From Gallionellales bacterium GWA2_54_124 (GTDB lineage: Bacteria; Pseudomonadota; Gammaproteobacteria; Burkholderiales; Gallionellaceae): a stretch of 32,000 nucleotides of DNA. Positions 16,568 through 30,816 of this stretch are shown here, piece by piece. The notes below the pieces were generated by a model. It saw only the letters and a list, made by a program, of their open reading frames with translations, made no database searches and was not told where the DNA came from. Numbering within the stretch: position 1 is the stretch's first letter; each line of letters begins with the position of its first letter. The position numbers and the translations under genes were made by a program. The stretch covers positions 1,217,576 to 1,249,575 of the forward strand of contig MGWO01000007.1 in assembly GCA_001801025.1 (NCBI GenBank), given 5' to 3'.

Positions 16568-19500
16568 ATGCTACAAAACATCATCGTCTGGTCGGCTCGC
16601 AACCGATTTTTAGTGCTGCTGGCGACAGGATTCATTGTGCTGGCGGGTGTTTATGCGATGTACAAGACGCCGCTGGATGCCTTGCCCGATTTATCCGATG
16701 TACAGGTCATTGTTTATACTGAATATTCAGGTCAGGCGCCGCAGGTGGTCGAGGATCAGGTGACCTATCCGCTGACCACGGCGATGCTGGCGGTGCCCAA
16801 ATCCCGTGTGGTGAGGGGCTTCTCCTTCTTTGGCGCTTCCTTTGTGTATGTGATTTTCGAGGACGGTACCGACATCTACTGGGCCAGATCCCGCGTACTG
16901 GAGTCGCTGGCCAGCATTGCCGGACGAATGCCGGCCGGTGTCGCGCCGCAACTGGGGCCGGATGCGACAGGGGTGGGCTGGGTGTACCAGTATGCGGTGC
17001 TCAGTGAAAAACACAATCTCGCTCAGTTGCGCACCATGCAGGACTGGTATTTACGCTATCAGTTGACCAAGGCGCATGGCGTCTCGGAAGTCGCCTCGAT
17101 AGGCGGTTTTGTGCAGCAGTATCAGGTAAGCGTGGATCCGGTCAAACTGCGCGCCTACGGCATTGCGCTCAAGACCATATCGCAGGTTATCCGGGATTCA
17201 AATCGCGATGTCGGCGGTCGCGTGGTGGAGATGGGCGAGACCGAATACATGGTCAGAGGGCGCGGCTATCTGCGCGGCAAAACGGATATCGAGACGCTGG
17301 TGGTGAAAGCGGATCGTGGCACACCGGTGCTGCTGCGCGATATCGCGCGCGTCGAACTCGGGCCCGACGAGCGGCGCGGCCTGACTGAACTTGATGGCGA
17401 AGGCGAAGTCGTGGCGGGGATTGCGATGGCGCGGTTTGGCGAAAATGCGCTGGAGGTCATTGAAAACCTCAAGCATAAGCTCACTGAAGTCTCGGCAGGG
17501 CTGCCCGAGGGCGTATCAATCCGCGCTGTGTACGATCGCTCAGAACTGATCAAGCGTGCAATCGACACCCTCAAACACACGCTGCTCGAAGAAGGCCTGA
17601 TCGTGGCGCTGGTCTGTATGGTGTTTTTGCTGCATGTCAGAAGCGCACTGGTGGCGATTTTAATGCTGCCGGCCGGTGTGCTGATCGCGTTTATCGCCAT
17701 GCATGCGCTGGGGATGAATTCAAACATCATGAGTTTAGGGGGAATCGCTATTGCAATCGGTGCGATGGTGGATGCGGCGATCGTGATGATCGAGAACGCA
17801 CATAAACACATTGAGCGATTAGGGGAGGGCGAGTCGCGTAGTGATGCGATTATTGCCGCCTGCCGCGAGGTTGGCCCGTCGCTATTTTTCTCCTTGCTGA
17901 TTATCACGGTGTCATTTTTGCCGGTATTCACGCTCGAATCCCAAGAAGGGCGACTGTTTTCACCGCTTGCCTATACCAAAACGTTTTCTATGGCGGGCGC
18001 GGCGTTGCTGTCGGTGACGCTGGTGCCGGTGCTGATGCTGCTGTTTATTCGCGGGCCGATTCTGCCTGAGCAGAAAAATCCGCTCAATCGCTGGATGATC
18101 AGGTTCTACCGTCCGCTGATTGCTGCCGTACTGTCGAAGCAGAAAACCACCGTTGCGATCGCGCTGCTGGTGTTGGCTCTGTCCGTCTATCCTGCGATGC
18201 GATTGGGCAGCGAGTTTATGCCGACGTTAAATGAAGGCTCATTGCTGTATATGCCAGCCTCGTTGCCGGGTATGTCGGTCACGAAGGCGGCCGAGTTGCT
18301 GCAAACGCAGGACAAGATCATCAAGTCGTTCCCGGAAGTCGCTTCCGTGTTCGGCAAAGCGGGCAGGGCGCAGACTGCAACTGATCCTGCGCCGCTGGAA
18401 ATGTTCGAGACGGTGATCAATCTAAAGCCTCAGGATCAGTGGCGTCCCGGCATGACCACCGATAAACTGGTCGCCCAGATGGATCAGGCCCTGCAATTTC
18501 CCGGTGTAGCCAATTCCTGGACGATGCCGATCAAAGCCCGCATCGATATGCTCTCAACTGGAATCAGAACACCTATTGGAATCAAGGTGTTCGGCAAGAA
18601 TCTTGAGGAAATGGAGCAGCTTTCAAAACAGATCGAGAGCGTGGTGCGGCAGGTGCCGGGCACATCCAGCGCGTATGCGGAACGGTTAACGGGCGGCGCT
18701 TATCTTGATATTGAGCCCGATCGTATGGCGCTGGCGCGTTACGGCCTGACGGTGGGTGATGTGCAGGATGTGATTGCGACCGCCTTAGGCGGCGAGACGG
18801 TCACCACCACGGTGGAAGGACGGGAGCGCTTCGGTGTCAACGTGCGATATCCGAGGGATTTGCGCGGCACACCGGAGGAGATTGCCCGCGAAGTGTTAGT
18901 CACCACTCAGGACGGCGCGATGATTCCGTTGGGGCAGGTGGCCAGAGTTATTATTAATCGCGGCGCACCGTCGATCCGTACCGAAAACGCGCTGCTCTCG
19001 GCGTATATCTATGTGGACATCAGGGACCGCGACATCGGTTCATTTGTCGCCGATGCGCGCCGGGCGGTGAACCAACAGGTCAAATTTCCGCCGGGCTATT
19101 ACGCGACCTGGAGCGGTCAGTTTGAATATATGGAGCGTGCCTATGCGCGCATGAAGATCGTGATTCCGATCACTTTGCTGCTGATCTTCCTGTTGCTGTA
19201 TCTCAATTTCAAACGGGTGACGGATTCCCTGATCGTGATGCTGTCGGTGCCCTTTGCGCTGGTCGGCGGTTTATGGCTGCTGTGGCTGCTCGATTACAAC
19301 GTATCGGTCGCCGTTGCGGTCGGGTTTATCGCGCTCTCAGGCGTGGCGGCTGAAACGGGTGTTGTGATGCTGATCTATCTTGAGCAGTCATGGCAGGCGG
19401 TGCTGGCGCGCTGCAAGGATGAAGGGCGCGCGGCCACGGTGCAGGATTTACATGATGCCATCATGCACGGCGCAGTCGAGCGGGTACGCCCCAAGATGAT

Positions 19501-19672
19501 GACGGTGGTCGCGATCATGGCGGGCCTGTTGCCTATCCTGTGGAGCACGGGTACGGGGTCTGAAGTGATGCGACGCATCGCCGCCCCAATGGTGGGCGGC
19601 ATGATTTCGTCGGCTATTCTGACGCTGTTGGTCATCCCGGTGCTGTTTGCGCTGGTAAAAGGAAAAAAATGA
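16568..19672 (+). CDS. cusA: Heavy-metal efflux RND pump, CusA type (Cu/Ag)
   Basis: 1034 aa. The TM4 signature GGIAIAIGAMVDAAIVMIENAHK matches the monovalent-cation (CusA) class rather than the CzcA DFGIIVDGAV class. Confidence 0.92.
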   Translation: MLQNIIVWSARNRFLVLLATGFIVLAGVYAMYKTPLDALPDLSDVQVIVYTEYSGQAPQVVEDQVTYPLTTAMLAVPKSRVVRGFSFFGASFVYVIFEDGTDIYWARSRVLESLASIAGRMPAGVAPQLGPDATGVGWVYQYAVLSEKHNLAQLRTMQDWYLRYQLTKAHGVSEVASIGGFVQQYQVSVDPVKLRAYGIALKTISQVIRDSNRDVGGRVVEMGETEYMVRGRGYLRGKTDIETLVVKADRGTPVLLRDIARVELGPDERRGLTELDGEGEVVAGIAMARFGENALEVIENLKHKLTEVSAGLPEGVSIRAVYDRSELIKRAIDTLKHTLLEEGLIVALVCMVFLLHVRSALVAILMLPAGVLIAFIAMHALGMNSNIMSLGGIAIAIGAMVDAAIVMIENAHKHIERLGEGESRSDAIIAACREVGPSLFFSLLIITVSFLPVFTLESQEGRLFSPLAYTKTFSMAGAALLSVTLVPVLMLLFIRGPILPEQKNPLNRWMIRFYRPLIAAVLSKQKTTVAIALLVLALSVYPAMRLGSEFMPTLNEGSLLYMPASLPGMSVTKAAELLQTQDKIIKSFPEVASVFGKAGRAQTATDPAPLEMFETVINLKPQDQWRPGMTTDKLVAQMDQALQFPGVANSWTMPIKARIDMLSTGIRTPIGIKVFGKNLEEMEQLSKQIESVVRQVPGTSSAYAERLTGGAYLDIEPDRMALARYGLTVGDVQDVIATALGGETVTTTVEGRERFGVNVRYPRDLRGTPEEIAREVLVTTQDGAMIPLGQVARVIINRGAPSIRTENALLSAYIYVDIRDRDIGSFVADARRAVNQQVKFPPGYYATWSGQFEYMERAYARMKIVIPITLLLIFLLLYLNFKRVTDSLIVMLSVPFALVGGLWLLWLLDYNVSVAVAVGFIALSGVAAETGVVMLIYLEQSWQAVLARCKDEGRAATVQDLHDAIMHGAVERVRPKMMTVVAIMAGLLPILWSTGTGSEVMRRIAAPMVGGMISSAILTLLVIPVLFALVKGKK

Positions 19673-19726: not shown

Positions 19727-19822
19727 TTAATACCAACGTATGCAATCACCGGCGGTTTGGGGTCTGGAAAATCGCTCGTTTCTATCGGCCGCATTCAAGA
19801 TTATTTGAAACATGGTAGTCGT
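19727..19822 (+). pseudogene. zot / pI assembly ATPase, N-terminal fragment (Walker A only)
   Basis: In-frame translation reads LIPTYAITGGLGSGKSLVSIGRIQDYLKHGSR, the P-loop N-terminus typical of Zot-like proteins. There is no ATG, and homology stops abruptly at the terminator hairpin at 19824. Confidence 0.65.
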
Positions 19823-19850
19823 AAGGGGGCTTGCGCCCCCTCTTTTTTTA
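19823..19850. terminator. Conserved bidirectional terminator hairpin, copy A
   Basis: AGGGGGC-ttgc-GCCCCCT followed by a T-run. The same hairpin recurs at 21117-21140 and 28419-28438. Confidence 0.7.
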
Positions 19851-19866
19851 CGGTTATGAGAATTGT

Positions 19867-20112
19867 TTAGAAAAATGATTTCAGTACTAAAGCCACAACG
19901 CCGCCCAGTACTAAGCCGGTCATCCATTTTAATATCTGAAGTTCTGCTTTCATGGGTGCTAGTTCTAATTGAATGTCTTTTTTTGTGACTAGCTCCTGAT
20001 CGTTGGACGCATCGCGGTAGGCGTTCGCAATTGCTTCGGCCTGGTTGTTTTGCATACCGCTGGCTTCAGGTGTTTTAACGAATTTCAGGGTGTCGAATGT
20101 AACGGTGCTCAT
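19867..20112 (-). CDS. DUF1640/CCDC90-like small membrane-anchored coiled-coil protein (cargo copy A)
   Basis: 81 aa: MSTVTFDTLKFVK...QAEAIANAY...LVTKKDIQ...C-terminal TM helix. The FDT-x-KFV / AEAIA pattern is recalled from the DUF1640 family. Paralog at 28441-28686. Confidence 0.6.
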   Translation of the reverse strand: MSTVTFDTLKFVKTPEASGMQNNQAEAIANAYRDASNDQELVTKKDIQLELAPMKAELQILKWMTGLVLGGVVALVLKSFF

Positions 20113-20136
20113 GATGTTCTTTTCGGTTGATGGTTA

Positions 20137-20165
20137 AGACTAAATCATTTTCACTACATTAGCAA
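20137..20165 (-). promoter_or_regulatory. Candidate sigma70 promoter of cargo slot (copy A)
   Basis: On the minus strand: TTGCTA (20165-20160), 17 nt, TAGTCT (20142-20137). The block is retained in all three copies. In copy C, homology begins about 5 nt upstream of the -35. Confidence 0.45.
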
Positions 20166-20330
20166 TTTAGTGACCACTCGATGCACTCTCCTGGACGTAA
20201 AAAAACTTTCCGCCTCGATGCTCAACCGTCCCGCTTTTTGCCCGAGAAGAAAAAAGGGTTTCGGGCGGTGTTGATCTGCTGGATCTGACCCGAAGACCGT
20301 AGGGTTCGGCAGTCGTCCCGCCGAAGGTTA
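20138..20330. repeat. 193-bp repeat R, copy A (cargo leader plus 165-bp structured distal part)
   Basis: Aligned by eye to 21691-21883, it shows 3 mismatches in 193 nt. The first roughly 30 nt also match 28711-28743. Confidence 0.9.
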
Positions 20331-20332
20331 AC

Positions 20333-20950
20333 GGTTTGATTGTTCTTGATGATTTTTAATTCGCGTGAATGGGCTGACAAGGGCAGGGCGGCTGTTATCG
20401 CATGGCTTCGCCATTCTCGTAAACTCGGTTGGGATGTCATTTACATTATGCAAGACGTGAATTCTATTGATAAGCAGATTCGCGCCGGATTGATTGAGCA
20501 TGAGGGCGTTTGTAAGCGTTCTGACCGTATGTCATTGCCTTTTGTTGGTGGTATTTTACGTGCTCTCGGTCTTGGTTTTTTGAGTCGTCCGCCTCGTGTT
20601 CATGTCTGCACTGTTAAATATGGCCTTTCCCAGCATGCTCTGTCGTTGATCGTTGGATGTATCGTGGTGTCTTGCTTCAGGATGGTTACGACACGAATCA
20701 GATTTTTAGTGAATTTGATGTTAACGGTGACTCTGTCGGCATTCATTCTATCTTAAGTCCTTGGCATACGCGGGGGCGTTATTTGCCTCCGCCGTTTTTG
20801 ACTCTTTTTCTGCTCTACCTTCGTGGTACTCCTTGGCGAAAGCCGGTTTCAACCTTCAAGCATCCGTTGGTTTCTCGCATCATGAAATTACCGCCGGAAC
20901 GGCGGATAGAGTTTTTCAATCGTTTTGATTCTTGCGGTGCATTTTCATGA
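20333..20950 (+). pseudogene. zot / pI assembly protein body, at least two frameshifts
   Basis: Walker B GLIVLDD (frame 2) hits a stop and the protein resumes in another frame as FNSREWADKGR...HSRKLGWDVIYIMQDVNSIDKQIR. A second shift near 20650 leads into RWMYRGVLLQDGYDTNQIF...LSPWHTRGRY. Confidence 0.7.
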
Positions 20951-21066
20951 GGTTGGTTATTTTGTGTTGCTTGGCTGTCTCGGCTTGTTCGTTTCCTTCG
21001 CATCGTGATGTTTATCTTGATTGGTACAAGTGTATGCAAAACAATTATGTGAAAGATTGTGATTGA
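20947..21066 (+). CDS. Small lipoprotein overlapping zot stop (ATGA), copy 0
   Basis: 39 aa: MRLVILCCLAVSAC|SFPSHRDVYLDWYKCMQNNYVKDCD. Lipobox-like signal and a shared W-x2-C-x8-DC pattern with the ORF at 28177-28308, which sits in the same position. Too short for the ORF track. Confidence 0.55.
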   Translation: MRLVILCCLAVSACSFPSHRDVYLDWYKCMQNNYVKDCD

Positions 21067-21110
21067 GATTTCCCGATCACAGCTGTATGCCGCGTCTTTA
21101 CTGGGTTTGA

Positions 21111-21146
21111 AAAAAGAAAAGGGGGCTTTCGCCCCCTTTTTTTCTC
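21111..21146. terminator. Conserved bidirectional terminator hairpin, copy B
   Basis: AAAAGGGGGC-tttc-GCCCCCTTTT, with an A-run before and a T-run after. Confidence 0.75.
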
Positions 21147-21163
21147 TGGCCGTTGGCTAATTG

Positions 21164-21391
21164 TTAAGCTGTTGCATACCGCCTTACATCTAACTCAACG
21201 CCATGTTGTGCGGCCTGATTTGCTTGCTCTAACAATGATCGGGTGATTTTTGCATCGTGGTAAGCCTCTCCGCAATTTTCACAAACTTCTGCGGGAACGT
21301 TTTTAAACATCATTGTCGAGTTGCCGCGTTCTAGCGTAATGCTTGCAACACCGTGTTGTGTATTTCCGTGTTTGCAAATTGGACATTTCAT
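21164..21391 (-). CDS. MqsA/YgiT-type zinc-ribbon antitoxin-like protein
   Basis: 75 aa: MKCPICKHG...NVPAEVCENCGEAYHD (CxxC...CxxC, YgiT-type zinc-finger pattern). It starts 2 nt after the stop of the upstream DUF4258 gene. Confidence 0.7.
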   Translation of the reverse strand: MKCPICKHGNTQHGVASITLERGNSTMMFKNVPAEVCENCGEAYHDAKITRSLLEQANQAAQHGVELDVRRYATA

Positions 21392-21393
21392 TT

Positions 21394-21666
21394 TTATCTC
21401 CTTGTTTTCAGGTCTTCGAGCCAGATTTCTGGGTTTGGCTCGTATACCGTAATTATGATTCTGATGTCTTCGTCGACAGAGTCGGCGTATACAACGTGAA
21501 CAGCCTTGTTTCCTGCATGTCCTAATAACAGTGCGCTAGGATAGGGCGTGTCATTCGGGTATGCCTCAATAATTGTTCCGGTTTCAATTGCCTGTTCTAC
21601 GTCAATTTCTGATATGCAACGCTCATGCATTCGCTTGATGGCGTGTTGTCTGTAAATTATCCGCAT
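21394..21666 (-). CDS. DUF4258-family toxin-like protein
   Basis: MRIIYRQHAIKRMHERCISEIDVEQAIETGTIIEAYPNDTPYPSALLLG...HVVYA...IIITVYEPNPEIW matches my recollection of the DUF4258 pattern. Start set at the ATG at 21666, which follows the conserved leader/RBS. Confidence 0.7.
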   Translation of the reverse strand: MRIIYRQHAIKRMHERCISEIDVEQAIETGTIIEAYPNDTPYPSALLLGHAGNKAVHVVYADSVDEDIRIIITVYEPNPEIWLEDLKTRR

Positions 21667-21690
21667 GCTTTTCCTTCGTTTGATTGTCAA

Positions 21691-21883
21691 GACTAAATGA
21701 TTTTCACTACATTAGCAATTTAGTGACCACTCGATGCACTCTCCTGGACGTAAAAAAACTTTCCGCCTCGATGCTCAACCGTCCCGCTTTTTGCCCGAGA
21801 GGAAAAAAGGGTTTCTGGCGGTGTTGATCTGCTGGATCTGACCCGAAGACCGTAGGGTTCGGCAGTCGTCCCGCCGAAGGTTA
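21691..21883. repeat. 193-bp repeat R, copy B
   Basis: See 20138-20330. The two flanks diverge immediately after ...CCGCCGAAGGTTA. Confidence 0.9.
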
Positions 21884-21969
21884 TCCAGTCAGCGCGCAGC
21901 CTGTTTTTTAATCACGGAGCTTTTCGCCGTTGATTTTTATTTATCGCGCTGGGGTGTTATTGTGACTTT

Positions 21970-22226
21970 ATGATATTTCATCCATACCCAGTTTGGTCTG
22001 TTGTAATCCGTAATCATTTTTGGACTCTGCGTTATATTCGCGGATTCAATGAGTCGCGGAGACGTCAGCAATATTGGCTAATCGAGAAAGAAAAAAACGC
22101 CTGTATGAAACAGGCGTTGATAGTGAAGTGGTGCGGTTGTTATGCCGAGATATGGCAATTCCTCGGAATCCTCATGCTGAAAAGCGCTTTTGGGATGAAT
22201 TTCATAAGCCCGCGAATTCTCCATAA
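21970..22226 (+). pseudogene. attP-adjacent 85-aa basic protein homolog, frameshifted in an A7 tract
   Basis: The first 42 codons parallel 29460-29717 with many synonymous differences. After A7 (22091-22097, versus A8 in the other copy) homology continues in the +1 frame (KRLYETGVDSEVVRLLCR...KRFWDEFHKPANSP, stop at 22224-22226). Confidence 0.7.
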
Positions 22227-22608
22227 TTTTCTTCTTATATTTGACATAATATACATTTGAATTCAACGAGTTACGATCTAACCCTATCAATTCACTTGCA
22301 TTTGCTGGGGCAGGTGTCATGTTTAAAATGACAGCACCTAATATCACCGACGCGGCATGACTCACAAAAGGGAGCAATACCGCTCTTCTTTCCTGATTTT
22401 TTTCTGTTATTAATTCGCTTGCTGAAATTACTTCCATTTCATTTATTGTTAATAGTTGAGCAATTTGACAACAAACTGCGATTGGTAAACCTGCGCGTCC
22501 GTTTTTTGCATTTGTAATTTGTTGAGAAGATACGCCAAGATAATCGGCTAATTCCTTTTGGCTCCCGACTTCCATTATTGCTAAGACAATGTAATTTTTC
22601 ATATTCAT
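22078..22608 (-). CDS. HTH (Cro/CI-type) phage repressor-like protein; ORF reads through the dif-like site
   Basis: MNMKNYIVLAIMEVGSQKELADYLGVSSQQITNAKNGRAGLP is an HTH. A hydrophobic segment follows (ASVILGAVILNM). AGGAG RBS before the ATG at 22608. There is no stop before the attachment site, and the 28-mer itself encodes NSNVYYVKY. Confidence 0.65.
   Translation of the reverse strand: MNMKNYIVLAIMEVGSQKELADYLGVSSQQITNAKNGRAGLPIAVCCQIAQLLTINEMEVISASELITEKNQERRAVLLPFVSHAASVILGAVILNMTPAPANASELIGLDRNSLNSNVYYVKYKKKIMENSRAYEIHPKSAFQHEDSEELPYLGITTAPLHYQRLFHTGVFFFLD
22096..22118 (-). terminator. Minus-strand intrinsic terminator embedded in the 85-aa ORF (copy 0)
   Basis: AACGCCTG / CAGGCGTT stem. 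On the minus strand it is followed by the T7 run. It lies downstream of the repressor gene, across the dif-like site. Confidence 0.55.
22239..22266 (-). other. dif-like XerC/D site, hybrid (XerD arm and spacer intact, XerC arm degenerate)
   Basis: Plus strand: ATTTGACATAA TATACA TTTGAATTCAA. The reverse complement of the first 17 nt is TGTATA-TTATGTCAAAT, against E. coli dif TGTATA-TTATGTTAAAT. The last 11 nt do not resemble a XerC arm. Confidence 0.7.
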
Positions 22609-22620
22609 TATTTTCTCCTG

Positions 22621-22688
22621 TTGACATACAAATTTATTTGATTTATTGTGTCGATCAAATAAGTTTGTATGCAATTAAATTTGTATGC
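22621..22688 (+). promoter_or_regulatory. Rightward promoter candidate plus three operator-like 9-mers
   Basis: TTGACA (22621-22626), 17 nt, TATTGT (22644-22649). TTTGTATGC occurs at 22664-22672 and 22680-22688, and its near-complement ACATACAAA at 22624-22632. Confidence 0.5.
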
Positions 22689-22737
22689 GCTTAGATTGCA
22701 CCAAACAGCGCAACAAGTCAATCAACAGGGGGCAGGA

Positions 22738-22968
22738 ATGCAAAACGGACAACCAGCACAGCAAAGGCTTATAGGCGTTTCTGGCATTATTCCCGTGCAT
22801 CTTGAAAACCGTCTACACAATTTAGCAGCTTCAAACCGCCGCGATTTCGACTTAGATTACTCGGACACGTTCGCTCAGGTGATCGCGCTAGGTGTCGATG
22901 CATTACAGTCCAGACGTTCGTCGGCCTATGTCCGGTCAACTGAAATTATGAAAAAGGTTTGCGGCTAA
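22738..22968 (+). CDS. Hypothetical small protein upstream of rep
   Basis: 76 aa from the ATG at 22738 (GGGGGCAGGA RBS). TAATG overlap with the in-frame rep ATG at 22968. No recognisable motif. Confidence 0.4.
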   Translation: MQNGQPAQQRLIGVSGIIPVHLENRLHNLAASNRRDFDLDYSDTFAQVIALGVDALQSRRSSAYVRSTEIMKKVCG

Positions 22969-24092
22969 TGACTCCTGCAAACCAACAGGCGCTTGAGGCT
23001 TTACAGGCTTACGACCTCGCGCATCCTCCCGTTGAGTCTGTCTCAACACAACCAGAATTTTTCAAGATAGTGCTGACTGATGATTCCAAATGTCCGGTCA
23101 AGCTAATACCGAATCGCATGTCATCTGGGGATGGTGTTGCATTCCTCGATTGGGTCAATTTCACTATCCACGAATCAACCATGATTGACTCTGCTTTAGA
23201 GGGGCAGTGTTTTTCTGACGAAGATTTCATGGTTTCGTTTTCTCGCATCCTCTTTAAGATTTTCGGCTTTGGTCTTACTTCTCGCATGAGTACCGGATCT
23301 GATTTCTACCAAAAAAGATGGGTGCTAGGGGAGGGCTTCGGCTTTGTCTGTTTCGGCGGCAATAACTCAACCGTCTTGACCAAGCTTTCTGGCACTGGCT
23401 GTGCGGCTGCTCTGCACGGTTGGGAATCTCGGTTAAGAAATTTCCTAGAGTATCAAGCTGTCCAGCCTCGTATCACGCGCCTCGATCTGGCGCACGATGT
23501 CTATGATGGTCAATCCTACAATGTGGATAGAGCTTCCAGTGATTACGATGCTGGCTTATTTTCTTCCGGCGGTCGCTCTCCGAATATCGAACTGCGCGGC
23601 AACTGGCGCACGCCAAACGGCAAAGGCCGCACGGTCTATGTCGGCGCAAGATCAAACGGTAAATATCTCCGCGTCTATGAGAAGGGCCGTCAGCTGGGCG
23701 ATGCTACATCTGAGTGGGTTCGTATCGAGGTTGAAATTAAATCCATTGATCGCGTTATCCCTTTTGATGCTCTGGTTAAGGCTGGCGAATATCTCGCGGC
23801 AACTTATCCGGCGCTCAATTTTCTGTCCGTTAAGCAATGTCGCATTGAAACAATTTCCCGTACTGCTAAGGCTGGCTATGCGCACACGGTTGCATGGTTA
23901 AAACATCAGTGTGGATCATCTTTGGCTCTGGTCGCTGAGATAGAGGGCGGGGCGGATCAGGCTCTTGATCTTATAAAACGCCCGATAGTTTTAAAGGGTG
24001 CTTTGCTCGTACCGTCTTGTGATACGCATCTAGTTCCTATTCATGATCGTGAGCGATTGGAGCATCCCGATATGGTTTTACCTGAATTCTGA
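22959..24092 (+). CDS. Rolling-circle replication initiation protein (Rep_trans / RstA-like)
   Basis: ITRLDLAHDV...GRTVYVGARSNGKYLRVYEKG...EWVRIEVEIK is the pattern of replication-initiation-factor (RstA-type) proteins of filamentous phages. The start may be the TTG at 22959 or the ATG at 22968. Confidence 0.75.
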   Translation: MRLMTPANQQALEALQAYDLAHPPVESVSTQPEFFKIVLTDDSKCPVKLIPNRMSSGDGVAFLDWVNFTIHESTMIDSALEGQCFSDEDFMVSFSRILFKIFGFGLTSRMSTGSDFYQKRWVLGEGFGFVCFGGNNSTVLTKLSGTGCAAALHGWESRLRNFLEYQAVQPRITRLDLAHDVYDGQSYNVDRASSDYDAGLFSSGGRSPNIELRGNWRTPNGKGRTVYVGARSNGKYLRVYEKGRQLGDATSEWVRIEVEIKSIDRVIPFDALVKAGEYLAATYPALNFLSVKQCRIETISRTAKAGYAHTVAWLKHQCGSSLALVAEIEGGADQALDLIKRPIVLKGALLVPSCDTHLVPIHDRERLEHPDMVLPEF

Positions 24093-24163
24093 TTTTTGAT
24101 TACCTCCTGTTTCCGGCGCTCAGGGTCAAAGGTATAGCCGTAGTAATTTATAAGGAAATTGTC

Positions 24164-24457
24164 ATGAAATTTAAAGCCTCTGTTGTTGTTACTGGTCTGA
24201 AGCGTTCTAAAGGCGATATGGAAGGTACGCCTTATGACTTTACGTCTGTTTTTATTCAGGTTGATTTAGACGAATCTACAAAAAACGCTCGCGGTCAGGC
24301 TGTTGAACCGTACAAGCTTGGCACGTCAGACAATTACGCGACTTTCGACGGTTTCCAGTTGCCGTTTAATGCGATGGCTGAGTTTGAAATTACAACTACG
24401 GGCAAAGTCGCAAAGCAAAAATTGCTTTCCCTTGTTCCTGTTCCTGCTCGTCCGTAA
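24164..24457 (+). CDS. Candidate ssDNA-binding protein (gpV analogue)
   Basis: 97 aa, immediately after rep, with an AAGGAA RBS. The assignment rests on size and position only. Confidence 0.35.
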   Translation: MKFKASVVVTGLKRSKGDMEGTPYDFTSVFIQVDLDESTKNARGQAVEPYKLGTSDNYATFDGFQLPFNAMAEFEITTTGKVAKQKLLSLVPVPARP

Positions 24458-24681
24458 TGCAATCCCCTGCGCTCCGTCAAGTTTGGGTTATCCAGTGCAA
24501 AAGCACGGGGGCTTTCTTGACGCCTGAACAAGGCTTTGCTGCAAGCCTAAAGAGGGCAGGGCGTTTGTTCAATCCTGATGAAGTCAGAGAGACGGCTTTT
24601 GATGCGCTCGATGACGATTATGAGGTTCATACCTTCTACGAGGTTGTGCAAATGCTTGAGGGTTTTCGTCATTATGAGTAG
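24457..24681 (+). CDS. Hypothetical protein
   Basis: 74 aa with a TAATG overlap with the upstream ORF. No motif recognised. Confidence 0.4.
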   Translation: MQSPALRQVWVIQCKSTGAFLTPEQGFAASLKRAGRLFNPDEVRETAFDALDDDYEVHTFYEVVQMLEGFRHYE

Positions 24682-24692
24682 CTTTTTCAATG

Positions 24693-24718
24693 CCCCCCCC
24701 CCCACATAAGATGGGGGG
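24693..24718. repeat. C11 homopolymer / G6 hairpin in intergenic region
   Basis: C x11 at 24693-24703, a 9-nt spacer, then G x6 at 24713-24718. Confidence 0.8.
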
Positions 24719-24778
24719 AAAGTATCTTTGTAAGTATGTATGTAGGGTATTTTCCCAAAATTTTATAGGGTTGGATTC

Positions 24779-24967
24779 TTGATGTTTAGTGAACATTCCA
24801 TCACTGCCGACTGGTTCATTCAGCAAGTCATATTAGCCCTGATTCATAGTGCTGTTTATGGCATGGCTTACCACTTTTTCAAAGGGCTGTCCCTCGGTGG
24901 TGCGGTGTTGGCTTGCTTGTGTCTGCTGGTCGTAGCGTGGCTCGCATTTAAACTTTTTAGGCGTTAG
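24779..24967 (+). CDS. Small two-TM membrane protein
   Basis: 62 aa with two hydrophobic helices. Its position is typical of minor virion or morphogenesis proteins. Confidence 0.4.
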   Translation: MMFSEHSITADWFIQQVILALIHSAVYGMAYHFFKGLSLGGAVLACLCLLVVAWLAFKLFRR

Positions 24968-24976
24968 GTCAATTAA

Positions 24977-25288
24977 ATGGCTTTTACTTGCGTCCCAGTC
25001 GTTGCTCAGTGGGGTACTGTCTCCTACATCAACACGAATCAAGCCGCATGCGCTGCTAATCAGTGGGCTGTGTTCACCTCTGCTGATTTGACTGCCTATA
25101 ACGCATCTTTAACCGCTGGCACGGCTTCAACCCCTGCCGTTACACAAACAACGTCATTCTTTCCCTCGATGACGATTGCGGAGGCTCTGCCCATATTTGC
25201 AGCTATCTCGCTGCTGTGGGGGCTGGCTTTCACCTTGAGGGCTATTGGTAATTTTCTAAAACCTAAATCTGGAGATTCAAATGATTAA
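24977..25288 (+). CDS. Small C-terminally anchored protein (possible minor coat protein)
   Basis: 103 aa with a C-terminal TM (LPIFAAISLLWGLAFTL). Its first 120 nt recur with one synonymous change at 31881-32000. Confidence 0.5.
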   Translation: MAFTCVPVVAQWGTVSYINTNQAACAANQWAVFTSADLTAYNASLTAGTASTPAVTQTTSFFPSMTIAEALPIFAAISLLWGLAFTLRAIGNFLKPKSGDSND

Positions 25289-25499
25289 AAAACTGAAAAA
25301 CGCGCTGATTCGTAAACAATTCAAGATCGCTGCTGGCGCTGGTGCGCTTCTGGCTGCTGGCTCGTCACAAGCTGCCATCGATGTAACTGGCGTTACAGCT
25401 GCCCTCACTGATGGTTTGACCGCTGTAGGTACGATCGGCGGTGCTGTTCTGCTCATTTGGGGGACAAAGAAGGTTTACGCCCTCATTTCCGGTCGTTAA
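25281..25499 (+). CDS. Major coat protein (gpVIII-like)
   Basis: 72 aa. Signal peptide ending SSQA|A, then a mature roughly 40-aa peptide with an acidic N-terminus, a hydrophobic core and a basic C-terminus (WGTKKVYALISGR). GGAG RBS and a strong terminator after it. Confidence 0.75.
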   Translation: MIKKLKNALIRKQFKIAAGAGALLAAGSSQAAIDVTGVTAALTDGLTAVGTIGGAVLLIWGTKKVYALISGR

Positions 25500-25518
25500 T
25501 CTTCAGTAAACAAATAAT

Positions 25519-25555
25519 TCCCCTTGTTGCGCGTAGCCTCAAGGGGATTTTTTTT
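25519..25555 (+). terminator. Rho-independent terminator after coat gene
   Basis: TCCCCTTG / CAAGGGGA stem, 13-nt loop, T8 run. Confidence 0.8.
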
Positions 25556-25608
25556 AAGGGGTATAAATTGGAAGGTTATCTTTTGTTACTCGGGCTTATC
25601 GGTGCTTT

Positions 25609-26886
25609 ATGGATTCTCTTCGCTCCCTAGTTTTACTTCTCGCCGTGTTTTTTTCCGGCCATGCTTTTGCTGGTGTTGATTACTCTCAACCCCAGCAGTC
25701 ATTCTCTGCACAAAGCTTGTCAGGTTCTTTTTCTAGCGCTGGGCTTATGCTTTCCGCTTTTATGTCTCATTTTCCGCAATATACGTCCTGTACTTTTGAT
25801 GGCGTCAACTCGCATCCAATTCTCTGCGATGGCACTGGCGGCGGCGGACCTTATACTCAGCAACCTATGGGTGTCGGTTATGCTTCTGCCCCTCTTTGCC
25901 CTTTATCATCTACGTTTAATTCTGTTTCTGGTCAGTGCGAAAAGCCAAATTCATGTACGGCTGGCCAGACTATTTTTGCTGGTCGTTGGTCGTCTATGCC
26001 CTCAAACGGCTGTAATTCAGGGTGTAATGCAGTTTGGACAGGCTCAAACGTTGCGGGAAGTTCCTCTAATTTTTCCGGTTCTGCTGTCCTCGATGGGTCG
26101 TCATGTTCTGGTGGATCGGCTGTGCCTCCTCCTGATTTGCAGGATATAACGGCTTGTCCATCTGGCCCGACTGGCCCGACTTCCTGCGCTGCTGGCGAAT
26201 CACTCGTTATTCAGGGTTGTACAGCATCTTGCTCCCCTAATACTCAGTCTGGTACTTCCGGATCAACGACTGGCGGCACTACTGGCGGCACTACTGGCGG
26301 TACAACTGGTGGCACAACTGGTGGCACAACTGGTGGTACAACTGGCGGTACAACAGGCGGTACAACTACCACAAACAACACGACAAACAATGTTGATATG
26401 TCGCCCGTCACGGCTGCGGTCGATGCTGCAACGGCTGCAATCAAGGCAGGAACGCTTGTCCAGTACTGCATCGATCATCCTGATGCGAATATCTGTCAGA
26501 CCAATGTCATTAATGCCGCTTGCGGTTCTTTTAACTGCTCTGGTGACGCTATTCAGTGCGCGATCGCAAAAGATCAATTTGACCTTCATTGCAAGCTTGC
26601 TAATGAGCAAAACGCCAATCTTGATATAGGCAAAAGGATGATTGATGGAACGGACACTAGCGTCAGAAATCCCGCTGATGTCGCTAACCGCTCCACTTTC
26701 TCAATTGGTTCTTTGGATATGAGTTCCCCCATTGCGGCCAAGTGCCCGGACGATGTTGTTTTTACTGTCATGGGTAAGTCGTCAACTTTGCCGTTGTCTC
26801 TCTGGTGTCCTTATCTCGCTCTTGTCGGCAATGTTTTCATGGCCTTGTCTCTTGTCGCTGCTGCTAAAATTATCGGAGGTGTTTAA
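25609..26886 (+). CDS. Adsorption / minor coat protein (gpIII-like)
   Basis: 425 aa. Signal peptide, Cys-rich N-terminal domains, (TTGG)x8 flexible linker, C-terminal membrane anchor. Confidence 0.7.
   Translation: MDSLRSLVLLLAVFFSGHAFAGVDYSQPQQSFSAQSLSGSFSSAGLMLSAFMSHFPQYTSCTFDGVNSHPILCDGTGGGGPYTQQPMGVGYASAPLCPLSSTFNSVSGQCEKPNSCTAGQTIFAGRWSSMPSNGCNSGCNAVWTGSNVAGSSSNFSGSAVLDGSSCSGGSAVPPPDLQDITACPSGPTGPTSCAAGESLVIQGCTASCSPNTQSGTSGSTTGGTTGGTTGGTTGGTTGGTTGGTTGGTTGGTTTTNNTTNNVDMSPVTAAVDAATAAIKAGTLVQYCIDHPDANICQTNVINAACGSFNCSGDAIQCAIAKDQFDLHCKLANEQNANLDIGKRMIDGTDTSVRNPADVANRSTFSIGSLDMSSPIAAKCPDDVVFTVMGKSSTLPLSLWCPYLALVGNVFMALSLVAAAKIIGGV
26266..26361 (+). repeat. 12-bp tandem repeat x8 encoding (TTGG)n linker
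   Basis: ACN ACN GGN GGN is repeated 8 times with synonymous third-position variation. Confidence 0.9.
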
Positions 26887-27191
26887 TGCCCGCAATTGGT
26901 GTTGTTATTGGCTGGCTTGTTGGTGCAATTGGCCTTACGCTTGCAAATTGGGTCGGTCGTGTTTTGGTTGCTCTCGGTATTTCTTACATCACGTTCAGCG
27001 GTGTTGATCTACTGTTTTCGAGCCTAAAAACTGAAATTTGGTCACTGCTCGGCGGTGCTGGTCAGCTTTCCGGTGTCATCGGTCTTTCCCGCATTGGCGA
27101 ATCGGTCAACATCGTTTTTTCCGCCTTGATCGCTAAAATGTCCCTTTCTGGCATGACTGGCGGTAAGCTCACTAAACAGGTCATCAAGTAA
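26886..27191 (+). CDS. gpVI-like minor coat protein (DUF2523-like)
   Basis: 101 aa and hydrophobic. TAATG overlaps on both sides. Located immediately upstream of zot, as in many inoviruses. Confidence 0.6.
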   Translation: MPAIGVVIGWLVGAIGLTLANWVGRVLVALGISYITFSGVDLLFSSLKTEIWSLLGGAGQLSGVIGLSRIGESVNIVFSALIAKMSLSGMTGGKLTKQVIK

Positions 27192-28180
27192 TGGCTATCG
27201 ACCTAACGCCGCTTACTGTTGTCACAGGTTTGCCCGGATCGGGCAAGACGCTTTTTACTCTTACTGGTGTTGATGAGTACTCCAAGCGTGAAGGCTTCAA
27301 GGTCTACTATCACGGCATTCCTCAATTGACGCTTGATTGGGAAATGCTCGAAGAGCCTAAGCAGTGGCACAACCTGCCGAACAAGTCGATTATTGTCATC
27401 GACGAATCACAAAGTACGTTCCCGCCCCGATCATCGTCGGCCGCCATGCCTGAACATGTCGCAGCTGCCAATACCCTGCGCCACAAGTCGCACATGCTGG
27501 TTTTGATTACGCAGCATCCGATGCTGATCGACGGGTCGATCCGCAAGCTTTGCACAAAGCATTATCACGTTGAGCGTTTTTACGGCTTTCAAAAATCAAC
27601 GATTCATGAGTTTTTGAAGATCCGCGACAACTGCGACAAATCCACTAAAGGCTCTATCTCTACGCATTTTGTTTATCCAAAAGAGGTTTTTAACTGGTAC
27701 AAAAGTGCGGATATGCACACGATCAAGAGGCGCATCCCCGCGCGTCTTATTATGATTATTATTCTGCCTTTGATCGCTGTTGCGCTGGTTTATTTATTCA
27801 TCAAAACTGTGGGAGGTTTGACTACTGGAGATAAGATTAAAGGGGGGGCTGCTTCACCCACCACCGGAGTTCAAGCGGTTTCAGGTGTCATTGCCGTTCC
27901 TGTTTGGACTGACACATTAAAGCCTCGGTTGTCCGGTTTTCCGCACACAGCCCCGCGTTATGATGAAGTGACTAAGCCGACTGTTGCGCCTTATCCCGCC
28001 GCGTGTGTTTCGTCTGAATCTCGTTGTGTCTGTCACACGCAACAGGGAACTAAAATGCTTGTCGATGATGCTCTTTGTCGGAGCATTGCCAGCAACGGAT
28101 TTTTTAATGATTTTCTTGAGAAAAAAACGGATTCATCGCCTGTTTCTCAAGTCCCTCGGCCTTCGTTATCGTCGCTATGA
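27191..28180 (+). CDS. Zot-like / gpI assembly ATPase
   Basis: Walker A VVTGLPGSGKT, Walker B IIVIDESQ, a mid-protein TM segment (LIMIIILPLIAVALVYLF) and a periplasmic C-terminal domain. Confidence 0.85.
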   Translation: MAIDLTPLTVVTGLPGSGKTLFTLTGVDEYSKREGFKVYYHGIPQLTLDWEMLEEPKQWHNLPNKSIIVIDESQSTFPPRSSSAAMPEHVAAANTLRHKSHMLVLITQHPMLIDGSIRKLCTKHYHVERFYGFQKSTIHEFLKIRDNCDKSTKGSISTHFVYPKEVFNWYKSADMHTIKRRIPARLIMIIILPLIAVALVYLFIKTVGGLTTGDKIKGGAASPTTGVQAVSGVIAVPVWTDTLKPRLSGFPHTAPRYDEVTKPTVAPYPAACVSSESRCVCHTQQGTKMLVDDALCRSIASNGFFNDFLEKKTDSSPVSQVPRPSLSSL

Positions 28181-28308
28181 TTAAAAAACTTTTCTGGATT
28201 CTGATGGTCGTTTTGATGTCTGGCTGCATGTCTACGCCTGAATCCCGCCATGCTGAAACTGCTGCATGGTGGTCTTGTACTAATCTCCATCGTGTTGGAG
28301 ATTGCTGA
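28177..28308 (+). CDS. Small lipoprotein overlapping zot stop (ATGA)
   Basis: 43 aa: MIKKLFWILMVVLMSGC|MSTPESRHAETAAWWSCTNLHRVGDC. Lipobox LMSGC. Homologous in position and Cys pattern to 20947-21066. Confidence 0.55.
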   Translation: MIKKLFWILMVVLMSGCMSTPESRHAETAAWWSCTNLHRVGDC

Positions 28309-28410
28309 ATATCGAGGCGAAGCGCACGCGGCTAACGAAGTGCCGCGAAGCTCGCCCGATATTTATTTTCTTCGATCGCAGCTGTATGCCGCGTATTTAC
28401 TGGGTTTTAT

Positions 28411-28442
28411 AAAAAGGGAAGGGGGCTTGCGCCCCCTTTTTT
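28411..28442. terminator. Conserved bidirectional terminator hairpin, copy C
   Basis: AAGGGGGC-ttgc-GCCCCCTT flanked by A- and T-runs. Confidence 0.75.
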
Positions 28443-28686
28443 AATGCATTTTCATCAGTATTCCGATTAAAACGGAGAATTGAGCTAGTGCTAGGCCGAT
28501 AATCCATTTAAGCATATCGAATTTCATATCGGTCAGCTGAATTTGTAGATCTTGTTTTGTTACGAGCTCTCTGTCGTCTGATGCGCTTTGATAGGCATTT
28601 GCAATTCCTTTTGCTCTCTCTTCGTCAAAACCGCTTTTTTTAAGTATTTCAACGAATTTCAGGGTGTCGAATGTCACTGTGCTCAT
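28441..28686 (-). CDS. DUF1640/CCDC90-like small membrane-anchored protein (cargo copy C)
   Basis: 81 aa: MSTVTFDTLKFVEILKKSGFDEERAKGIANAY...LVTKQDLQ...TM helix. The N-terminal 12 aa are identical to copy A and the rest has diverged. Confidence 0.6.
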   Translation of the reverse strand: MSTVTFDTLKFVEILKKSGFDEERAKGIANAYQSASDDRELVTKQDLQIQLTDMKFDMLKWIIGLALAQFSVLIGILMKMH

Positions 28687-28743
28687 GATGTTCCTTTCGG
28701 TTGATGGTTAAGACTAAATCATTTTCACTGCATTAGCAATTTA
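28687..28743. repeat. Cargo leader/promoter, copy C (truncated R)
   Basis: Matches 20113-20169 with 2 mismatches by eye. Homology ends right after the -35 TTGCTA, at the stop codon of the next ORF. Confidence 0.85.
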
Positions 28744-29145
28744 CGCGAATAACTGCCTGTTTTTTTTGGGTGTCCAGTCAGCCCATTTTAGAATATCTGC
28801 CACAATTACCAGCTCGAGCACGTCTTGAATGGGTGCAACTTGCTTGGCCGCTGGCATTTTGAAATTCTTTACCCATTTTTTCAGCCATTCGGCTGAATTT
28901 TCCTTAATCTCGGCCATGATTTGCAAGGCCACGCCAACAGCATCAACGAAGTCCAGCCACGTTTGACGGGCTTTAAATTCCGCGTTTTTCATGTATCTGC
29001 AATTGTTGATTTTCATGGTTTTGGTATTCCCAGCATCTTCCAGAATCTTGAGCCTGCTTTTGATTTCCTCGCGGTGCAGGTTTCTGCCGCTTGCTTCTTT
29101 GCTTCTCCCGTCATCCCGTCGCCTTGCGATATCAGCTCGTAGCAA
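28741..29145 (-). CDS. Orphan hypothetical protein occupying the position of the distal part of repeat R
   Basis: 134-aa ORF with a TTG start; internal ATGs would give 91 or 83 aa. No recognisable motif and no clear RBS. Confidence 0.35.
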   Translation of the reverse strand: MLRADIARRRDDGRSKEASGRNLHREEIKSRLKILEDAGNTKTMKINNCRYMKNAEFKARQTWLDFVDAVGVALQIMAEIKENSAEWLKKWVKNFKMPAAKQVAPIQDVLELVIVADILKWADWTPKKNRQLFA

Positions 29146-29459
29146 TTTTAATAATCAACGATTTTGGCAAGATCGCAGTTTTTGCGGCTGTATCGCAAAA
29201 AACGATTGCCGCAAAACCCGAAGGGCGCACAGTCTCACCGTGCGTTGTTGATTATTGAAATTGTCGGAGGGAAGATTCGCGTTTTAGGCGGCGGGGTGAT
29301 GGGAAAGCATTTGCGGAGTGCTGCACGGTCGAGTCAAAAAATAGAGCACCCGAAGGGTGACGACCTAACAGACAGTTTCACCCGTCTGTTAGCCTTTTAA
29401 TGCAGTTGGCATTGCGCCGTTGATTTTGATTTATTGCGTAGCGGTGGTATTCTGAAAAA

Positions 29460-29717
29460 ATGATATTCCATCAATACCCCAACTGGTCAGGCACGATTTT
29501 GAGTCATTACTGGTATCTGCGTTACTTCCGCTCGTTTCAGGAGGCTAGACGGCGCAAACAATACCGGCTGATCGCGAAGGAAAAAAAACGCCTGCATGAA
29601 ACAGGCGTTGATAGTGAGTTGGTGCGGTTGCTATGCCGTCATGCGGCAAATCCTCGGAATCAACATGCTGCAAAACGCTTTTGGGATGCTTTGCACAAGC
29701 CTGCGGAATCTTCTTAA
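29460..29717 (+). CDS. Conserved attP-adjacent 85-aa basic protein
   Basis: Compared with 21970-22226, many differences are synonymous or conservative (F, P, S, I, Y, R, L, K codons), which indicates purifying selection. Arg/Lys-rich. No family recognised. Confidence 0.6.
   Translation: MIFHQYPNWSGTILSHYWYLRYFRSFQEARRRKQYRLIAKEKKRLHETGVDSELVRLLCRHAANPRNQHAAKRFWDALHKPAESS
29587..29609 (-). terminator. Minus-strand intrinsic terminator embedded in the 85-aa ORF
   Basis: AACGCCTG / CAGGCGTT stem followed on the minus strand by T8 (29581-29588). Confidence 0.55.
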
Positions 29718-29728
29718 TTTACTAATCA

Positions 29729-29756
29729 ATTTGACATAATATACATTATGCGTATT
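29729..29756 (-). other. dif-like XerC/D recombination site, near consensus
   Basis: The reverse complement reads AATACGCATAA TGTATA TTATGTCAAAT, against E. coli dif GGTGCGCATAA TGTATA TTATGTTAAAT. The spacer is identical, the XerD arm matches 10/11, and the XerC arm shares CGCATAA. Confidence 0.8.
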
Positions 29757-30120
29757 TAAAACGCCTAAAAACGCCTCCCTGCGTTTTTACGAGGTCTTGC
29801 CCTGTCCATAAGGTAGCGATGCAAAGCAAGGCCATTATGAGGCCTCTCAGGGGCTGCTTTACACGCAAGCGAAAACCCGCCCAGAACTTTTGCTCTGTTT
29901 CGTTCTTCGCGCTCAATTCCTCAAACTCCGCTATCAACGCCAATGGATCCAACCCAAGACATTCCGCGATCTTCATCAGCGCATAGGCATTCGGTACACG
30001 TTTGCATTTCATGTATTCGCTGATTCTTTGTGTCGGAATCTTCAGTTCTTTTGCTAGTGCGTAATCGCTGGAAATCTTTAGCTTGATTTTGCAGTCTTTC
30101 AAAAGTTCGCTGGTTCTCAT
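29746..30120 (-). CDS. HTH phage repressor-like protein with hydrophobic C-terminal segment
   Basis: MRTSELLKDCKIKLKISSDYALAKELKIPTQRISEYMKCKRVP is an HTH. GGAGAG RBS before the ATG at 30120. The TAA stop is the first 3 nt of the XerC arm. The C-terminus contains LRGLIMALLCIATLW. Confidence 0.65.
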   Translation of the reverse strand: MRTSELLKDCKIKLKISSDYALAKELKIPTQRISEYMKCKRVPNAYALMKIAECLGLDPLALIAEFEELSAKNETEQKFWAGFRLRVKQPLRGLIMALLCIATLWTGQDLVKTQGGVFRRFKYA

Positions 30121-30255
30121 TTTTCTCTCCGGTAGTCCGACTGTTTCAGTTGGCAGCTGTATTTTATCCCGTTTTTGGGGATTGACAATCTCCCACTTAT
30201 CGGGATACATTCGGCTATCCCATATTTCGGGACAATTAACCGACAAAGGAACATC
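30121..30255. promoter_or_regulatory. Divergent control region with repeated heptamers
   Basis: TTGACA at 30182-30187 with TACATT 18 nt downstream. TATCCCG (30165-30171), CGGGATA (30201-30207), TATCCCA (30216-30222) and CGGGACA (30228-30234) occur in alternating orientation. Confidence 0.45.
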
Positions 30256-30546: not shown

Positions 30547-30727
30547 TCATGTTCCTCCCAAAAATCTCCCCCGATTTTTCCTCGTCCTCACCGACGGGGT
30601 TTTTTGCTGCGTCCTCTGGTTCGAAAAAACCCGCCTTTGTCGGTGTCGAGGTCGCAGCAAAAAACCTGAGAATTGACCCTACAAAAAAGTTGGTCATTTC
30701 TTGTTCTGGGGTAACACGTAGCCAATC

Positions 30728-30790
30728 ATTCCCAATATGGGAATTTTATCTCTACTTTTACCCCCTGCCATTCAGTCTCAAATTGAGACT
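30728..30790. promoter_or_regulatory. Two palindromes upstream of rep (operator or origin candidates)
   Basis: ATTCCCA-ata-TGGGAAT at 30728-30744 and a perfect 17-bp palindrome AGTCTCAAATTGAGACT at 30774-30790. Confidence 0.4.
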
Positions 30791-30816
30791 TTTCTAAAAC
30801 CATATCGGGGGATATT

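Follow-up and report, generated by a model that had tools for sequence, protein, structure and literature searches.

The window analysed here is a 32,000-nucleotide (nt) stretch of contig MGWO01000007.1 from Gallionellales bacterium GWA2_54_124. It carries an array of inovirus prophages, namely a decayed remnant, a complete prophage (phiA), and the start of a third one (phiB), together with two sites resembling dif, the chromosomal dimer-resolution site of the recombinases XerC and XerD. On the plus strand, the sites read ATTTGACATAA-TATACA-TTTGAATTCAA (22239-22266) and ATTTGACATAA-TATACA-TTATGCGTATT (29729-29756), both in the order XerD arm, spacer, XerC arm. The original prediction, made from the letters of the window, had given these two sequences, the shared XerD arm and spacer, and an agreement of only 3 of 11 positions between the remaining arms; all were confirmed from the window sequence, the last by hand count. 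The layout that it described was also found. A reverse-strand helix-turn-helix (HTH) repressor gene adjoins each site (22078-22608 and 29746-30246), the two repressors being different proteins; a complete inovirus with Rep_trans, coat, pIII-like, and Zot genes lies between them.

Two dif-like sites in an inovirus array

The features on which the analysis turns are the following (ORF, open reading frame; aa, amino acids; HMM, hidden Markov model; attP, phage attachment site).

22239-22266, minus strand: hybrid junction, XerC side to XerD side TTGAATTCAAA + TGTATA + TTATGTCAAAT
22256-22266, minus strand: phiA XerC-side arm, TTGAATTCAAA
22250-22255, minus strand: spacer TGTATA of the hybrid junction
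22239-22249, minus strand: XerD arm TTATGTCAAAT, contributed by the right end of the preceding phage remnant
29729-29756, minus strand: full canonical dif, AATACGCATAA TGTATA TTATGTCAAAT
22256-29745, plus strand: complete 7.5-kb inovirus prophage phiA
22078-22608, minus strand: phiA repressor, HTH_3/YdaS-like, 176 aa
29460-29717, plus strand: small attP-adjacent ORF, 85 aa, ending 11 nt before the XerD arm
21970-22260, plus strand: the small ORF again, in a diverged 96-aa copy, at the remnant's right end (HMM E 2.4e-23)

The 29729-29756 site is the only full dif-like 28-mer in the window, with 4 mismatches to the reverse complement of E. coli dif; a scan of 19-32 kb found no dif-like sites other than these two. 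The window contains exactly two copies of the 17-mer of XerD arm and spacer that they share. With up to 3 mismatches allowed, 0.05 chance matches are expected, and none of 100 shuffles reached two. The upstream flanks (21919-22255 and 29409-29745) are homologous, with 76-84% identity, and this homology breaks off exactly where the spacer meets the XerC arm. The sites are thus direct dif-like repeats at the chromosomal dif, one of them a full dif, as in an integrative mobile element that exploits Xer (IMEX). No recombinase or integrase domain was found in phiA; Pfam analysis of all called genes showed only Rep_trans, coat, DUF2523, Zot, and HTH domains. The 22239-22266 junction is also present in seven of ten nearly identical metagenome contigs (L001-L010) that extend the picture beyond the window (L001, L003-L006, L009, and L010).

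The full dif at 29729-29756 takes its XerD arm and spacer from the right end of phiA. Its XerC arm is that of the chromosome. Outside the window, the junction of phiB with the chromosome reads TGTTTTCATAA CTACGCA TTATGCGTATT, followed by host DNA (L002 2465-2500, L007 5315-5350); the chromosomal XerC arm is therefore TTATGCGTATT. L007 is 100% identical to 30600-32000 and runs on to the chromosome on the far side. The 29729-29756 site is likely the working dif of the chromosome, lying between phiA and phiB, and an identical full dif is found in one relative (L019). The cumulative GC skew turns over within the prophage array, as expected near the replication terminus.

The odd arm of the 22239-22266 site is the 3' coding end of the phiA repressor gene, in frame. 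The repressor frame crosses the site as ...NSLNSNVYYVKYKKK... and continues into the right end of the preceding phage. The repressor homologues (39-82% identity, mostly 119-138 aa) end in or just past the site: some with ...VYYVK and some with ...MYIM, each directly before the stop codon, while others read onward through ...HCILCQ.... These three ends are three reading frames of one DNA string, TGTATA+TTATGT[C/A]AA; the spacer and the XerD arm are therefore conserved as DNA, not as peptide. The 11 bases upstream of the spacer are ordinary, variable coding sequence. By these sequence features, the odd arm is native to the phiA attP and not decayed.

Attachment sites of related phages

Six independent single prophages carry a full dif at the distal end and a non-canonical arm on the repressor side. 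Their sites are listed below as XerC side, spacer, and XerD arm, with the distal site (full dif) first and the repressor end second.

L013: distal TATACGCATAA TGTATA TTATGTCAAAT; repressor end TTGATTTCAAA TGTATA TTATGTCAAAT
L019: distal AATACGCATAA TGTATA TTATGTCAAAT; repressor end ATTGAATCCAA TGTATA TTATGTCAAAT
L021: distal AAACGCCATAA TTGGCA TTATGTCAACT; repressor end CGGTCCAACGA TTGGCA TTATGTAAACT
L022: distal ATTACGCATAA TGTATA TTATGTCAAAT; repressor end TTGATTCACAC TGTATA TTATGTCAAAT
L023: distal ACTTCGTATAA TTTATA TTATGTCAAAT; repressor end TCAGAAACCAA TTTATA TTATGTCAAAT
L041: distal TCTACGCATAA TGTATA TTATGTCAAAT; repressor end TGATTCAACAC TGTATA TTATGTCAAAT

L031 has the same layout, with an XerD arm 1 nt shorter at the repressor end. 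The hosts of the relatives belong to Nitrosomonadales, Rhodocyclales, Gallionella, and Casimicrobiaceae. A scan of viral contigs with the repressor alignment gave five loci, two of them informative. The viral contig L017 begins and ends with exactly the same 141 nt in direct orientation, the mark of a circular assembly; its repressor, attP, and small ORF follow each other without interruption, as they do in L014.

Thirteen related attachment sites were compared, from single prophages, the circular viral contig, and the isolated phage RSS0. All have a canonical XerD arm. The information content is 17.1 bits for the XerD arm, 7.2 bits for the spacer, and 2.65 bits for the XerC side, against 13.7 bits for the XerC arms of the hosts themselves. 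The information on the XerC side lies entirely in a CAA-like inner end, the trinucleotide being present in 9 of the 13 sites. Between phage arm and host XerC arm, 3-5 of 11 positions agree, about as many as by chance. The phage spacer is identical to the host spacer in 8/8 pairs, across the variants TGTATA, TTTATA, and TTGGCA. Integration leaves a perfect dif at the small-ORF end, consisting of the host XerC arm, the spacer, and the phage XerD arm; the host therefore keeps a working dimer-resolution site. The repressor-side junction is composed of phage arm, spacer, and XerD arm, which is the classic Xer-element geometry.

The closest described phage is RSS0 (JQ408219). According to the passages on it in Yamada 2013 (PMC3816273), the reverse-oriented repressor gene ORF13 has attP at its 3' end, attL and attR share 19 nt (TATTTAACATAAGATAAAT, XerD arm plus spacer), and integration at dif shortens ORF13 from 156 to 130 aa. 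In the same passages, integration is depicted as reversible and XerCD-mediated, the dependence on XerC and XerD being a proposal. In the deposited genome, the site in ORF13 is CAGGTCAACGA TTTATC TTATGTAAAAT, and its XerC side is non-canonical. In the searched passages of the RSS0 papers (PMC3816273; Askora & Yamada 2015, PMC4471427), the site is given as 'dif, like CTXphi' and the missing XerC arm is not mentioned; nor is it in those of a survey of PM2-like phages (PMC12715192).

Two statements of the original prediction, that the repressor-side arm derives from the attP of that phage and that the complete prophage carries an attP without a canonical XerC half-site, are borne out by the single-copy relatives L013, L019, L021-L023, and L041, by the circular L017, and by RSS0. 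A comparison with free or replicative-form phage genomes had been suggested as a check, and RSS0 and L017 likewise have no canonical XerC arm. The first of the two causes that had been offered, mutational decay of a once canonical XerC arm after integration, locking the prophage in place, did not survive this comparison. Only 3 of the 11 positions of the odd arm are those of the host XerC arm, and the neighbouring element at 19.7-22.2 kb is clearly decayed. However, an arm of the same kind is found in 12 other family members, including the circular contig and the isolated RSS0; in addition, an intact repressor gene uses the arm as coding sequence, in frame, and phiA is intact elsewhere too. 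Decay was rejected as very improbable. The other cause offered, an unusual pathway that is XerD-first or dependent on an accessory factor, is plausible. It is likely, in our judgement, that 22239-22266 is the repressor-side junction of an RSS0-like dif-integrating prophage, whose native attP consists of an XerD arm, a host-like spacer, and the unconstrained 3' end of the repressor gene.

Some further observations concern the repressors. At nine loci (L024-L030, L032, and L033), homologues of the phiA repressor family end in or against tRNA genes and not at dif. The repressor 3' end seems to serve in general as a place where different attachment sites can dock. A hydrophobic, membrane-helix-like stretch (LLPFVSHAASVILGAVILNMTP) follows the HTH in both window repressors (22300-22390, phiA repressor residues ~75-105; 29790-29850 in phiB), in RSS0 ORF13, and in all homologues. 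Such a stretch is unusual for a phage repressor. RSS0 ORF13 could not be cloned for expression, as stated in a passage of the report by Yamada (PMC3816273).

Two observations concern the host flanks of relatives. In L013 (10360-10477), a second perfect XerD arm lies inverted, 92 nt off, in the host flank past the repressor-side junction (TTATGTCAAATGA / TCATTTGACATAA); none was seen in the window or in other loci. In L041 (7437-10186), the full dif is followed directly by a pair of tyrosine-recombinase genes (Phage_integrase, 408 and 507 aa), standing side by side, and by a 775-aa ORF. This is a different mobile element parked beside dif.

Known Xer-exploiting systems and the proposed mode of integration

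Three mechanistic classes of Xer-exploiting elements, CTX, VGJ, and TLC, are listed in a June 2026 bioRxiv preprint from the Barre laboratory; in our framing, the mechanistic work on these elements has all been on Vibrio. TLCphi of Vibrio cholerae resembles phiA in having one canonical and one degenerate arm, in sharing its spacer with dif, and in re-forming a full dif. It is nevertheless the mirror image, since TLCphi keeps the XerC arm and has a degraded XerD arm, whereas phiA does the reverse. The TLC type combines this canonical XerC and degenerate XerD arm with a DUF3653/XafT gene beside attP, and phiA shows neither: TLCphi encodes XafT (DUF3653), and none was found in phiA. VGJphi-type phages are, like phiA, inoviruses that use a double-stranded attP at dif. 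They have a canonical XerC arm and spacer homology on the XerC side only; phiA conserves the opposite arm, and its 6-bp spacer matches fully. The inverted second dif-like site of the CTX type was not found in phiA. The site geometry of the relatives thus bears out the earlier description of the phiA site as the reverse of TLCphi and unlike the CTX and VGJ types.

The likeness to RSS0 is closer. Both have a reverse HTH repressor with attP in its 3' end, and in both dif integration alters the repressor C-terminus. ORF13 is homologous to the phiA repressor (blastp E 9e-8) and, like it, is built of an HTH, a hydrophobic stretch, and the translated dif. In both phages, XerD arm and spacer make up the att core, the hosts are betaproteobacterial, and Rep is of the Rep_trans type; the phiA Rep has ~36% identity (tblastn E 1e-25) to the RSS1 group, RSS1 being a truncated RSS0 derivative. 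A small ORF homologue is also shared. The two differ in host order (Gallionellales and Burkholderiales), in spacer (TGTATA in phiA and TTTATC in RSS0), and in their low sequence identity. In addition, phiA has further genes on the reverse strand and shares a mixed array with a VGJ-like phage. On these sequence comparisons, phiA is a further RSS0-like dif-integrating phage.

PM2-like phages offer another parallel. In passages of a 2025 survey, "left-armed (17-bp)" dif-like attPs are described for them (PMC12715192). The PM2 site, checked in sequence, is ATTTAACATAA TATAAA TCGTAAGCACG and lies beside a DUF3653 gene. As in phiA, the attP consists of XerD arm and spacer only and has a repressor gene on one side and a small regulator gene on the other, and dif is re-formed at one junction. 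PM2-like phages, which have double-stranded DNA, are however unrelated viruses; their repressor frame does not cross the site, and the attP-adjacent gene is a DUF3653/XafT homologue without a counterpart in phiA. The XerC side of PM2 keeps an outer GTGC and matches the E. coli arm at 6 of 11 positions (hand count). RSS0 and the PM2-like phages are published precedents for attPs limited to XerD arm and spacer. The novelty implied by the original prediction was therefore overstated, as passages on RSS0 (PMC3816273, PMC4471427) and on the PM2-like 'left-armed 17-bp' attP (PMC12715192) indicate. The family rule (XerD arm, host-matched spacer, free XerC side) and the conserved attP-adjacent gene were not found in the literature searched.

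We infer the chemistry of integration from this geometry. Host XerD would bind the conserved arm and anchor the complex. Through cooperative protein-protein contacts, XerC would be brought onto a non-specific arm in which the CAA-like inner end is all that is kept. Full spacer identity would allow a complete two-step exchange, as in dif-dif or TLCphi recombination. Because of this identity, a two-step exchange is favoured over the XerC-only, replication-resolved route of the VGJ and CTX types. The exchange would probably be XerD-first and probably assisted by a phage factor, the best candidate being the small gene at the XerD arm. With a perfect dif next door, FtsK could drive excision of the prophage, and the weak XerC side would protect it from this. 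In TLCphi and the gonococcal islands, degenerate XerD arms have been proposed to guard against such excision (PMC9226527).

The small ORF encodes 80-100 aa. Its transcription runs toward the XerD arm, with 0-15 nt between its end and the arm. Its family is phrog_27692, with the motif HYWxLR...YRxIxKEKKRL..GVD. It adjoins the XerD arm in every dif-type relative with that flank sequenced (L011, L013, L014, L017, L019, L021, L022, L023, L031, and L041), and is also found in RSS0 (HMM E 1.8e-7). It is present in 0/9 tRNA-type relatives and is also absent at the VGJ-like end of phiB. In the window, the diverged copy at 21970-22260 overlaps the XerD arm and spacer of the 22239 junction. The activation-factor genes xafT and xafV directly adjoin attP (bioRxiv 10.64898/2026.06.12.731946), and by its position only, the small ORF product may be a candidate accessory factor. 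Its structure model has four helices (pLDDT 85.6).

Homologues of the small ORF were also found away from phages. In Nitrotoga arctica and in related contigs (L036 10001-10314 and L038-L040), it stands directly against a full dif, ACTTCGCATAA TGTATA TTATGTCAAAT, without any phage; the L036 copy extends into the XerD arm. On its XerD side, the dif of these genomes appears to be a phage fossil.

Several points weigh against the two-step exchange assisted by the small ORF product, or against the evidence used for it. No DUF3653/XafT similarity was detected in the small ORF and 30 aligned relatives, with Pfam hits considered up to E 10. The hhalign comparison with XacF1 ORF11, a weak DUF3653 member, gave a probability of 0.2. 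In Foldseek searches against viral predicted structures and the PDB, nothing fell below E = 1, and the structure gave no tie to XafT, XafV, or the FtsK gamma domain. The tie of the small ORF to dif-type sites could be a matter of shared ancestry and not of function. The host-spacer identity could partly reflect earlier phage insertions that rewrote the host dif; on this, phage-derived small ORFs adjoin dif even in the phage-free genomes L036-L040. XerC arms are naturally less conserved, and XerC might bind odd arms better than their sequence suggests. Finally, L009 and L010, in which the phiA junction follows the Zot gene, come from the same population, and tandem copies are indistinguishable from circles; these contigs were dropped as proof of a circular phiA.

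The main rival is an XerC-first, VGJ-like exchange. Here, XerD would place XerC on the degenerate arm, a single exchange would take place at the arm-spacer boundary, and replication would resolve the product, with no factor and no XerD catalysis. The plasmid sites cer and psi, which recombine XerC-first, have a similar CAA-like inner end; among the phage sites, such an end is present in 9 of 13. The homology of the two window sites also stops exactly at the XerC cleavage boundary. Moreover, CTXphi and VGJphi use this route as their FtsK-independent default (PMC9226527; bioRxiv preprint). However, spacer homology on the XerC side would be enough for it, whereas 6/6 spacer positions match the host in 8/8 pairs. 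It would also be surprising if the recombinase that catalyses were the one whose arm is free to vary, and VGJphi itself needs an activation factor (bioRxiv 10.64898/2026.06.12.731946). We regard this exchange as unlikely, though it deserves serious consideration.

A CTX-like single-stranded attP, in which a plus-strand hairpin pairs the site with a second, inverted dif-like sequence and the double-stranded XerC side is irrelevant, would suit the single-stranded genomes of inoviruses and is the hairpin route of CTXphi (PMC9226527), but it was rejected as highly improbable: neither a conserved inverted repeat nor another dif-like site in inverted orientation lies beside attP in L010, the window, or RSS0, and in the CTX route the cleaved-strand XerC arm is still at the junction and canonical. 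Least probable of all is a register shift, with the XerC arm one base out and a 7-bp spacer. The resulting arm, GTTGAATTCAA, resembles what we take to be the XerC arm of cer (7/11, hand count), but such a lone match is weak, and the other 12 family sites moved by one base share no XerC-like arm on hand inspection; this was rejected as well.

A broader reading, which we put forward only tentatively and hold to be rather doubtful, is that RSS0-like betaproteobacterial phages form a fourth Xer-exploiting class. Such a class would have no specific XerC arm and XerD as its only anchor, with XerC acting on or occupying arbitrary coding DNA, and would use phrog_27692 as a new, non-DUF3653 activator. 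It would re-form dif on the side opposite to the VGJ type, and mixed arrays would therefore grow outward from a central dif.

The window and 12 relatives show a widespread betaproteobacterial phage lineage with an attachment site that mirrors TLCphi. The phiA instance is ordinary for its family, and its value lies in the family rule and the candidate accessory gene. Together, these two make a mirror-of-TLC mechanism directly testable. They raise the question of whether XerC can cleave at an unrecognised arm, or be dispensed with there, and of what activates the reaction. Scanners of dif motifs that demand both arms miss one border of such prophages. The C-terminus of the repressor depends on the integration state. 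A host can have its working dif within a phage array and owe the XerD arm of that dif to a phage.

Proposed array history and neighbouring genes

The remaining features of the window are as follows.

Up to ~19.7 kb: chromosome of a Gallionella-type betaproteobacterium, including a CusA-like protein gene (16568-19672), its product identical to entries from metagenome-assembled genomes of Gallionella and Gallionellales
19727-22238, plus strand: decayed phiA-type prophage remnant, right end only, with an 81-aa CCDC90-like gene, a Zot fragment (20349-20756), a toxin-antitoxin insert, and the small ORF
21164-21391 and 21394-21690: toxin-antitoxin pair in the remnant, MqsA-like zinc-finger antitoxin and DUF4258 protein
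22256-29745, phiA gene order: repressor, 99-aa ORF, Rep_trans (22959-24092), ORF of the size of a single-stranded DNA-binding protein, coat (Phage_Coat_B), pIII-like (25609-26886), DUF2523, Zot (27191-28180), two reverse ORFs, small attP-adjacent ORF
29746-32000, plus strand: start of the third prophage, phiB, with repressor (29746-30246, minus strand), Phage_DNA_bind ORF, and Phage_CRI Rep (30817-31881)

The stop codon of the phiB repressor falls inside the canonical XerC arm. At the junction of phiB with the chromosome, the XerC arm is canonical, the XerD arm is degenerate, and the 7-nt spacer does not match. By its junction sequence, phiB fits a VGJ-like element that keeps the XerC arm. The array mixes two integration strategies that rebuild dif on opposite sides; the working dif is therefore left in the middle of the array.

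The order of events is likewise something we infer. phiB would have integrated first, re-forming a working dif on its repressor side. Phages of the phiA type would next have entered that dif successively, each re-forming dif at its own right end, so that the oldest should be the leftmost; the leftmost element (19.7-22.2 kb) is indeed decayed. The working dif at 29729-29756 would thereby have ended up mid-array. The sequence of the phiB-chromosome junction agrees with this order. A dif-like junction was looked for at the chromosome-remnant border near 19.7 kb, and none was found; the left junction of the remnant is taken as lost by deletion.

The prophage region had no Megablast matches among GenBank phages or E. 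coli genomes, and protein-level searches found distant inoviruses only. The phiA Rep is 36-40% identical to inovirus Reps, RSS1 included, and Zot matches Ralstonia and other inoviruses. In the remnant, 209-bp direct repeats (20122-20330 and 21675-21883; 97% identical) bracket the toxin-antitoxin pair and the Zot fragment. L009 has the same right end as the remnant, without the toxin-antitoxin insertion. The pIII-like gene contains a 12-nt tandem repeat at 26239-26370, which encodes (GGTT)n. Its product is 425, 441, or 461 aa long across the near-identical contigs, and the gene is split in two ORFs in L001 and L005; because of this variation in length, the repeat is either length-polymorphic or hard to assemble.

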